From: Naegleria gruberi | Taxonomy: Eukaryota | Strand: one strand, 5' to 3' | Assembly (NCBI GenBank): GCA_000004985.1 | Contig: GG739479.1 | DNA length: 1,246 nucleotides | In this document: positions 499 through 1,246 of the stretch, one piece after another | Position numbering within the stretch: position 1 is the stretch's first letter | Layout of the letters: every line of letters begins with the position of its first letter | Made by a program: the position numbers and the translations under genes | Notes under the pieces: generated by a model | What the model saw: the letters and a program-made list of their open reading frames with translations, nothing else | What the model was told of the DNA's origin: nothing | The model's database searches: none

Positions 499-526
499 TG
501 TTTCGTTCACTTAGTTTCGTTCACTT
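499..526. repeat. Tandem direct repeat, 13-bp unit GTTTCGTTCACTT x2 (500-512 and 514-526) separated by 1 nt
   Basis: Exact identity of the two units, read directly from the sequence. Confidence 0.85.
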
Positions 527-564
527 TCCAAACACAATAAAAATGGCATTGCCCAAGTGAAATG

Positions 565-598
565 GTGAACGAAACAATCCAAGTAAGGAAAACGAAAC
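565..598. repeat. Inverted copies of the same motif: GTGAACGAAAC (565-575, perfect reverse complement of GTTTCGTTCAC) and AACGAAAC (591-598, 8-bp partial copy)
   Basis: The reverse complement of 500-510 equals 565-575 exactly (11/11; 12/12 when 499 is paired with 576). The 591-598 copy matches the first 8 bp. Together with the direct repeat this forms a palindromic array centred near 544. Confidence 0.8.
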
Positions 599-639
599 TA
601 TTAGCGTTTGTGGAACTTTTGTGCAAATTTTAAATATTT

Positions 640-707: not shown

Positions 708-1246
708 TTAGAGTTGGAGAGTCTTTGGTTGTTCCCATGGGAATTCGCTTCTTCCAAAGTGACCATAAGCAGCAGTTGGTGAGTAGATTGGGTTCATCAA
801 GTTCAAATCCTTAATGATGTGATATGGTCTCAAATCAAAGTTCTTATTGACAATAGCCAAAATATCAGCATCAGTCTTACCGTTCAAAGCAGTACCATAG
901 GTATCAACGTGAACAGACAATGGGTGAGCAATACCAATAGCATAGGCAACTTGAACCAAACATCTCTTAGCCAAACCAGCAGCAACGACGGACTTAGCAA
1001 CCCATCTTGCAGCATAAGAAGCAGATCTATCGACCTTAGATGGATCCTTACCAGAGAAAGCACCACCACCGTGAGCACCCCAACCACCATAAGTATCAAC
1101 AATAATCTTTCTACCAGTAAGACCAGCATCACCTTGTGGACCTCCGATAACGAATCTTCCAGATGGGTTAAGATGGTAAATAGTAGCATCATCCAACAAA
1201 TTGGCTGGAATAACTGGAACAATGACGTGTTCCTTCAATGACTTTG
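708..1246 (-). CDS. SAM2: S-adenosylmethionine synthetase (methionine adenosyltransferase, MAT/MetK family; yeast SAM1/SAM2 ortholog), C-terminal ~179 aa including TAA stop at 710-708; 5' end of gene lies beyond window end
   Basis: The translation carries MAT hallmark blocks: [67 protein letters not shown] and, further on, [22 protein letters not shown] through [22 protein letters not shown]-stop. The frame stays open upstream of the track's TTG 'start' (codons K-S-L at 1239-1246), so the true ORF runs off the window. The GGWGAHGGG and C-terminal PWExPKxL tail are eukaryotic-type. Codon use is strongly biased toward GGT, CCA, AGA, TTG and AAG, as in highly expressed yeast genes. Confidence 0.95.

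Follow-up and report, generated by a model that had tools for sequence, protein, structure and literature searches.

A palindromic motif array upstream of an alpha2delta-like gene in Naegleria gruberi, a candidate cis-regulatory element

The sequence window analysed in this study is an entire small scaffold of Naegleria gruberi, 1246 bp in length, which carries parts of two genes on the minus strand. The 261-bp spacer between these genes (positions 447-707) contains several direct and inverted copies of an 11-nt motif. An earlier note on this DNA, which was made from the sequence alone, had read this array as a promoter element and had offered a transcribed hairpin as an alternative. The locus therefore raises the questions of which of the two genes the array belongs to, whether it could have arisen by chance, and what it may do.

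Genes on the scaffold and the position of the array

The left gene occupies positions 1-446 on the minus strand. Its 5' coding part starts at the ATG at 446-444 and exits the left end of the scaffold, and the N-terminus of its translation resembles a signal peptide (MQKLVPLLLLGFLLVSLSF). The 148-aa fragment showed no match to Pfam and none in a word-indexed homology search. An exhaustive HMMER search with the same fragment yielded two relatives only, one in Naegleria fowleri and one in Willaertia magna. The N. fowleri relative (FDP41_004522, 553 aa), which is recorded under the name "VWFA domain-containing protein", shares 73% identity with the product of the left gene, and the W. magna relative (656 aa) shares 45%. 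Both relatives contain a signal peptide, a large ectodomain and a C-terminal transmembrane helix, and both show a weak match to PDC/Cache. In addition, FDP41_004522 matched the structures of the voltage-gated Ca-channel subunit alpha2delta-1 over the VWA-Cache region (E~9e-6). These sequence comparisons identify the left gene as the orthologue of FDP41_004522 and its product, of which the scaffold encodes the N-terminus, as an alpha2delta-like VWA/Cache type I membrane protein, not as a simple cell-wall protein or the secreted protein assumed in the earlier note. The ATG at 446-444 is backed by the three-way alignment of the orthologues and by the identical N-terminus of two N. fowleri gene models that are independent of each other, and in-frame stops are present upstream of it. 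The orthologue of FDP41_004522 is seemingly unannotated in N. gruberi, as neither the 148-aa fragment nor the orthologue profile matched any N. gruberi protein in the database. No orthologue of this gene was found in the JGI metagenomes.

The right gene (708-1246, minus strand, stop codon 710-708) encodes the C-terminal 178 codons of S-adenosylmethionine (SAM) synthetase (Pfam PF02773, 8e-69) and is 100% identical to an NCBI record, 'predicted protein, partial [Naegleria gruberi]'. Apart from this identical record, the nearest SAM synthetase among the best 120 matches was an environmental sequence with 81% identity (contig L001), whose contig is not syntenic with the scaffold; no N. fowleri SAM synthetase was present among these 120 matches.

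The poly(A) signal of the SAM synthetase gene, AATAAA, is located at 690-695 on the minus strand, 12-17 nt past the stop codon. AAUAAA is used in N. gruberi, in which the median length of the 3'UTR is 39 nt (PMC11529991). The SAM synthetase mRNA is therefore expected to end at approximately 660-680, leaving 60 nt or more between its end and the array, which thus belongs to the 5' flank of the alpha2delta-like gene. This position bears directly on the possibility that the array serves the SAM synthetase gene instead, in 3'-end formation, in termination or as an insulator. Such an assignment would agree with the location of the array downstream of this gene on the same strand. However, the expected mRNA end falls well short of the array, and the N. 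fowleri element described below adjoins a divergent gene, with no gene 3' end nearby. This explanation is consequently highly unlikely, as is the role in 3'-end formation that the earlier note had entertained.

Several features lie between the array and the ATG. An A-rich stretch (TCAAAAAAAAAAACAAA on the gene strand) occupies 447-463 on the minus strand and abuts the ATG. A-rich runs precede most ATGs in the N. fowleri and W. magna loci that we compared, and on this comparison the stretch is of a kind generally seen where heterolobosean genes start. A CCATCAC block is found on the gene strand at 464-470 (-24 to -18 relative to the ATG) and also in N. fowleri, at -20 to -14; it may represent an initiator or start region. 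A CCAAT box (AGCCAATA on the gene strand, 490-497, with CCAAT at 491-495, -49 to -45) sits within a 47-nt insertion specific to N. gruberi and could be a site for NF-Y.

Two other repeats were seen on the scaffold. The word TATTGGCT, which is AGCCAATA on the gene strand, occurs twice, at 490-497 in the promoter and at 692-699, where it overlaps the AATAAA of the SAM synthetase gene. The coding region of the left gene and the stop-codon region of the SAM synthetase gene are joined by an inverted repeat (AACTCTAAATT / AATTTAGAGTT, 208-218 and 705-715) that is perfect over 11 nt, has 486 nt between its arms and is probably due to chance in AT-rich DNA.

Copies of the motif and their counterparts in N. 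fowleri

On the plus strand, exact copies of the motif GTTTCGTTCAC occupy 500-510 and 514-524. The minus strand carries one more exact copy at 565-575 and, at 591-598, an exact copy of the 8-mer core GTTTCGTT. The tandem pair, the reverse complement and the 8-bp copy are thus located precisely as the earlier note had described. The direct copies are actually 13 nt long (GTTTCGTTCACTT) and are repeated with a period of 14 nt, and the full unit is approximately 16 nt (GGAAAGTGAACGAAAC on the gene strand). The copies span -54 to -152 from the minus-strand ATG, which bears out their placement upstream of the start codon in a 261-bp spacer.

When read on the gene strand from the ATG outwards, proximal copy 2 comes first, with the sequence (CT)AAGTGAACGAAAC, of which AAGTGAACGAAAC occupies 500-512 (-66 to -54); it is a tandem duplicate of proximal copy 1. 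Proximal copy 1 (514-529, -83 to -68) represents the full unit, GGAAAGTGAACGAAAC, and the N. fowleri promoter matches it exactly over the first 12 nt. It is followed by the inter-arm spacer, or loop (530-556), which is not conserved and holds an upstream ATG at 549-547 (-103). Distal copy 1 forms the inverted arm (557-575, -129 to -111) and reads GTTTCGTTCAC-CA-TTTCAC, in which 2 nt are inserted between CGTTCAC and TTTC; in the comparison of the units it is represented by GTTTCGTTCAC-CA-TTTC. Distal copy 2 (587-600, -154 to -141) reads TAGTTTCGTT^TTCC, its core part being GTTTCGTT^TTCC; it is the unit minus 4 nt, a 4-nt deletion, and shows 10-nt complementarity to 512-521. A degenerate, weak fifth copy may be present at 477-484. 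The longest perfect stem is formed by 499-510 and 565-576 and consists of 12 bp with 54 nt between the arms, confirming the geometry of an 11-12-bp stem and a ~54-nt loop given in the earlier note. A second stem of 11 bp is formed by 514-524 and 565-575, with 40 nt between the arms.

The number of copies is difficult to attribute to chance, as had been suspected in the earlier note. The 11-mer with up to 2 mismatches gave 5 matches versus 0.32 expected, and 5 matches were reached in 0 of 200 shuffles; the 8-mer with up to 1 mismatch gave 7 matches versus 1.06 expected (0 of 200 shuffles). When the N. gruberi spacer was shuffled, 3 of 1000 sequences contained a perfect inverted repeat of 11 nt or longer that was not of low complexity.

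The CpGs at 504, 518, 570 and 593 form the centres of the four motif copies and account for four of the six CpGs in this spacer of 30% GC; the motif-centre CpG is also present in N. fowleri. Naegleria possesses cytosine methylation and Tet-like enzymes, and methylation-sensitive binding at the motif CpGs is conceivable.

To examine conservation, we compared the orthologous loci of N. fowleri (L002, 21.8 kb) and W. magna (L003), which together comprise 43.8 kb. Two further N. fowleri isolates (L004 and L005) have identical promoters and add no phylogenetic depth. The gene upstream differs among the three species: in N. gruberi the SAM synthetase gene stands in tandem, and the neighbours in N. 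fowleri and W. magna are divergent, an RCC1/RGS gene and a 6PF2K gene, respectively. The exact 8-mer GTTTCGTT is absent upstream of the orthologue in both N. fowleri and W. magna. The N. fowleri promoter contains its own perfect 10-bp palindrome, TGGCGTTCAC (L002 9937-9946) / GTGAACGCCA (9974-9983). The longest word common to the two Naegleria promoters, low-complexity words aside, is GGAAAGTGAACG, which is identical at 12 of 12 positions, has the same orientation and is located at -83 in N. gruberi and at -32 in N. fowleri; CGTTCAC lies upstream of it in both species, and in N. fowleri it is these two words that make up the 10-bp palindrome. In the MAFFT alignment, GGAAAGTGAACG is followed by the 47-nt insertion found only in N. 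gruberi, which consists of the second tandem copy and the CCAAT box, and then by CCATCAC and the A-rich leader. Since the upstream neighbour differs between N. gruberi and N. fowleri, it is the alpha2delta-like gene with which the element has stayed.

The units of the two species differ in defined ways. The N. fowleri proximal unit reads GGAAAGTGAACGCCA and the distal unit TGGCGTTCAC-ACAA-TTTCC, both on the gene strand. The conserved part of the unit is CGTTCAC plus TTTCC, and the 7-nt core and GGAAA/TTTCC are invariant across all full copies in both Naegleria species. This invariance points to sequence-specific recognition and not to pairing alone. The distal arm carries an insertion at one shared place, 2 nt in N. 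gruberi and 4 nt in N. fowleri, which argues that the inverted pair is older than the split of the two species. Two flank positions differ, being TT/AA in N. gruberi and GG/CC in N. fowleri, and are compensated on both arms.

The statistical support for this conservation depends on the event that is scored. The shared 12-mer alone was matched in 53 of 3000 shuffles (p~0.018), and the collinear-block score in 51 of 2000 (p~0.026), the latter value being no lower because random 7-mer matches are common. By contrast, an event defined a priori, the presence of a 7-mer of the N. gruberi 11-mer in both orientations, was observed in 99 of 100,000 shuffles, and among 2171 real windows of L002 and L003 it was satisfied only by the 8 windows overlapping the orthologous promoter of N. 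fowleri. The perfect palindromes present in both species seldom arise by chance (17 of 1000 shuffles, and the 3 of 1000 mentioned above for the N. gruberi spacer). The 21.8-kb N. fowleri locus contains three GTGAACG sites, against an expectation of 1.37 over its entire length, and all of them fall in a stretch of 270 bp at the 5' end of the gene; no other promoter in L002 or L003 contains the words of the element. The element is thus non-coding, lies upstream of the gene and is conserved beyond chance in the orthologous promoter of N. fowleri, which qualifies it as a phylogenetic footprint. As for the conservation in related species on which the earlier note had set store, part of the unit is kept in N. 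fowleri, but the 8-mer is absent there and W. magna lacks the element: its promoter showed no match even at up to 3 mismatches and contains only AT-rich low-complexity repeats.

Two further matches deserve mention. N. fowleri has a third AGTGAACGC outside the palindrome, at L002 9711-9719, which falls within the divergent neighbour (RCC1/WD40/RGS), approximately 80 nt into its coding sequence; this copy may be an additional site for binding or may be due to chance. A 16-mer shared with L002 near 12429 was rejected as AT-rich low-complexity sequence.

Possible roles of the array

With moderate confidence, and on sequence comparison, we interpret the array as a gene-specific palindromic cis-regulatory element of the alpha2delta-like gene that is bound by a putative factor. 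The ancestral element would have been an inverted pair of one unit, composed of a distal CGTTCAC-(2-4 nt)-TTTC and a proximal GGAAAGTGAACG, and would predate the separation of N. gruberi and N. fowleri. In N. gruberi, a 14-nt tandem duplication of the proximal unit and an additional distal copy, itself partly deleted, may have brought the element to four copies. Most likely, a putative sequence-specific factor would bind the arms as DNA; the extra copies would then allow cooperative or higher-occupancy binding, and the transcription so controlled would start between the proximal arm and the ATG. A regulatory role, probably through protein binding, had also been suggested in the earlier note and is reasonable, as the array is partly conserved before the N. 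fowleri orthologue. The copy number and the distance to the ATG vary and the third AGTGAACGC lies outside the palindrome, features that are typical of clustered binding sites. DNA recognition is favoured by this variation in spacing and copy number, by the upstream ATGs and by a core that does not change. The upstream ATG of N. gruberi (549-547) opens a 12-codon uORF (MPFLLCLESERN) that ends in the proximal copy, and that of N. fowleri (L002 9966-9968) encodes MGK-stop; both are in a CAATG context and inside the loop of the palindrome. These loop ATGs, together with the very short 3'UTRs of N. gruberi, mildly favour a start site downstream of the palindrome. In our literature search, we found neither cis-regulatory DNA elements described for Naegleria nor 5'UTR lengths for this genus. 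The cis-element reading is drawn from two informative species, N. gruberi and N. fowleri, as W. magna shows nothing.

Part of the data would fit better with a role of the palindrome as RNA. If transcribed, it would fold, in the 5' leader of the mRNA for the alpha2delta-like protein, into a hairpin that modulates translation or stability. An RNA-binding protein may recognize this hairpin, and the extra N. gruberi copies, which are arranged in nested order, would add a second, nested stem. The sequences of the two species are predicted to fold into the same two-part hairpin, consisting of a 10-11-bp stem, a 2-4-nt bulge on the 5' side, a second stem of 4-6 bp and a loop. The N. fowleri fold has a free energy of -20.5 kcal/mol (z -3.6), and in N. 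gruberi the inner hairpin has -21.5 kcal/mol (z -2.5) and the nested double structure -34.6 (z -5.2). RNAalifold applied to the two sequences predicted 10 pairs, of which 2 are changed on both sides (U:A to G:C) and 0 are broken. With a stable fold in both species and two compensated pairs, the hairpin alternative of the earlier note survives, and the compensated flanks favour it, since a simple cluster of independent sites does not predict compensation. However, only two pairs in two species covary, and this is also predicted by any model in which the arms need to read alike. The core is invariant in sequence and not covarying, the antisense strand folds about equally well with no G:U asymmetry, the distance from the palindrome to the ATG varies between the species, and the upstream ATGs inside the loop argue mildly against a 5' leader. 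Searches of Rfam 15 gave no family match at E<=1, and a tRNA scan found nothing. We therefore regard a leader hairpin as possible but not probable. It is likewise doubtful, although worth keeping in view, that the palindrome is a structured element in a wider sense, either a bulged RNA hairpin in the 5' leader or a DNA cruciform or hairpin, that has been kept by compensatory substitutions from the divergence of N. gruberi and N. fowleri onwards and that N. gruberi doubled into a nested two-stem structure. If this is true, a structured element would control the expression of a channel-subunit homologue of the alpha2delta-like type, and Heterolobosea would gain one of their first defined cis-elements of a post-transcriptional or structural nature.

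Explanations without any function at this promoter have also to be weighed. The array might have been left behind by slippage or inverted duplication acting locally in an AT-rich intergenic region, its likeness to the N. fowleri sequence being coincidental. The tandem copy of 14 nt clearly arose by recent duplication, W. magna is without the element, and the p-values of the single statistics are modest (0.018 and 0.026). This explanation is nevertheless unlikely, because the a-priori test gave ~1e-3 with an event that is unique to the orthologous promoter within 43.8 kb, both species have perfect palindromes that rarely arise by shuffling, and the orientation, the position of the distal-arm insertion and the CCATCAC block are common to the two species. 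An imperfect inverted repeat of 34 nt (477-510 / 565-598, 71% complementary) would be compatible with a remnant of a MITE-like element with terminal inverted repeats, and a dispersed genomic repeat would be a related explanation. Yet the position is orthologous in N. fowleri, no further copies exist in the 43.8 kb of related DNA, and the flanks show, by reading, no target-site duplication; we thus consider a mobile or dispersed origin very improbable. The content of transposable elements in N. gruberi is reported to be 0.28% (bioRxiv 10.64898/2026.06.24.734286). A search of metagenomes with a generalised palindrome pattern returned 13 loci with approximately 7 distinct sequences, all of which are bacterial-looking or GC-rich and represent unrelated bacterial hairpins, and none of the 13 loci encodes an orthologue of the alpha2delta-like protein. 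Within this set, a hairpin resembling a bacterial bidirectional terminator (aaaaaataCGTTCACTTTCC...GGAAAGTGAACGtattttttt) recurs in the human-gut contigs L006, L007, L011, L013 and L016; it shares a 12-nt stem with the Naegleria unit by happenstance and is unrelated to it.

The cis-regulatory interpretation, which we prefer, has practical consequences. Naegleria includes the brain-eating pathogen N. fowleri, and a palindrome conserved before one gene in N. gruberi and N. fowleri offers a candidate element of 12-16 nt that is open to testing and that varies naturally in copy number. The palindrome unit could also serve as bait for finding its binding factor.

Comparison with known motifs and regulatory elements

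None of the known motif families compared here (SCB, E2F, HSE, Myb and IRF-like) fits the element. The earlier note had likened the array to SCB sites, to which a factor of the Swi4/Swi6 (SBF) type would bind and drive a cell-wall or secreted-protein gene. The resemblance itself stands, as AACGAAA matches the yeast SCB, CRCGAAA, at 6 of 7 positions, but ACGAAA is precisely the part of the unit that is not conserved. N. fowleri has GTGAACGCC in place of the N. gruberi GTGAACGAAAC, and the orthologous copies read AACGCCA versus AACGAAA, so that ACGAAA has become ACGCCA while the adjacent GTGAACG and GGAAA are retained. Furthermore, the DNA comes from N. gruberi and not from a yeast, and the orthologues of the flanking gene are found in N. 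fowleri and W. magna. Homologues of SBF/APSES (KilA-N) factors have not been found outside fungi except for virus-derived cases (PMC4862756). An SBF-driven promoter, which would thus require a factor family from the wrong kingdom, is effectively refuted. The yeast-based reading, attributable to a guess at the organism from base composition, was overturned once the source of the DNA had been identified.

The E2F site (TTTSSCGC), the non-fungal counterpart of SCB/MCB, likewise consists of a T-run followed by a CG-containing core, and the distal flank of N. fowleri, TTTGGCGT, matches it at 7 of 8 positions. However, the N. gruberi sequence TTTCGTTC matches at 6 of 8 positions and is without the essential CGC core, only one N. 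fowleri arm fits, and the conserved GTGAACG/GGAAA is not E2F-like. An E2F/DP site was accordingly rejected, as the intact CGC/GCG core is not conserved. A heat-shock element was rejected because the nGAAn/nTTCn units have no consistent 5-bp register, with TTC...TTC spacings of 6 nt in the intact proximal units, 8 nt in the N. gruberi distal unit and 10 nt in the N. fowleri distal unit. A Myb site (YAACNG) was rejected on sequence or taxonomy. The metazoan IRF-E/ISRE (GAAAGTGAAA, GAAANNGAAACT) shows a close similarity, in that GGAAAGTGAAC matches GAAAGTGAAA at 9 of 10 positions and N. gruberi 586-600 reads AGGAAAACGAAACTA, giving IRF-like stretches at 514-529 and 586-600. To our knowledge, IRF factors are metazoan-specific, and this resemblance is probably a coincidence.

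With regard to elements that act as RNA, hairpins in 5' leaders, such as those of translational control of the iron-responsive-element type, would resemble the palindrome, were it transcribed, in having a stable stem-bulge-stem near the start codon, here in two species and with compensated pairs. They differ from it in that the Naegleria loop contains upstream ATGs and in that the palindrome has no sequence or Rfam likeness to known elements. The array can also be compared with the clustered palindromic or inverted transcription factor sites of compact eukaryotic promoters, such as upstream activating sequences. These also lie upstream of the gene, use one word in several copies and in both orientations, and vary in copy number and spacing between species around an invariant core. 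The Naegleria element departs from them in two respects: the 27-40 nt between its arms are too great a distance for a single rigid dimer, and its flank positions covary between the arms. As far as can be judged from the sequences of two species, the element would be a fresh example of a familiar kind, palindromic cis-regulatory sites.
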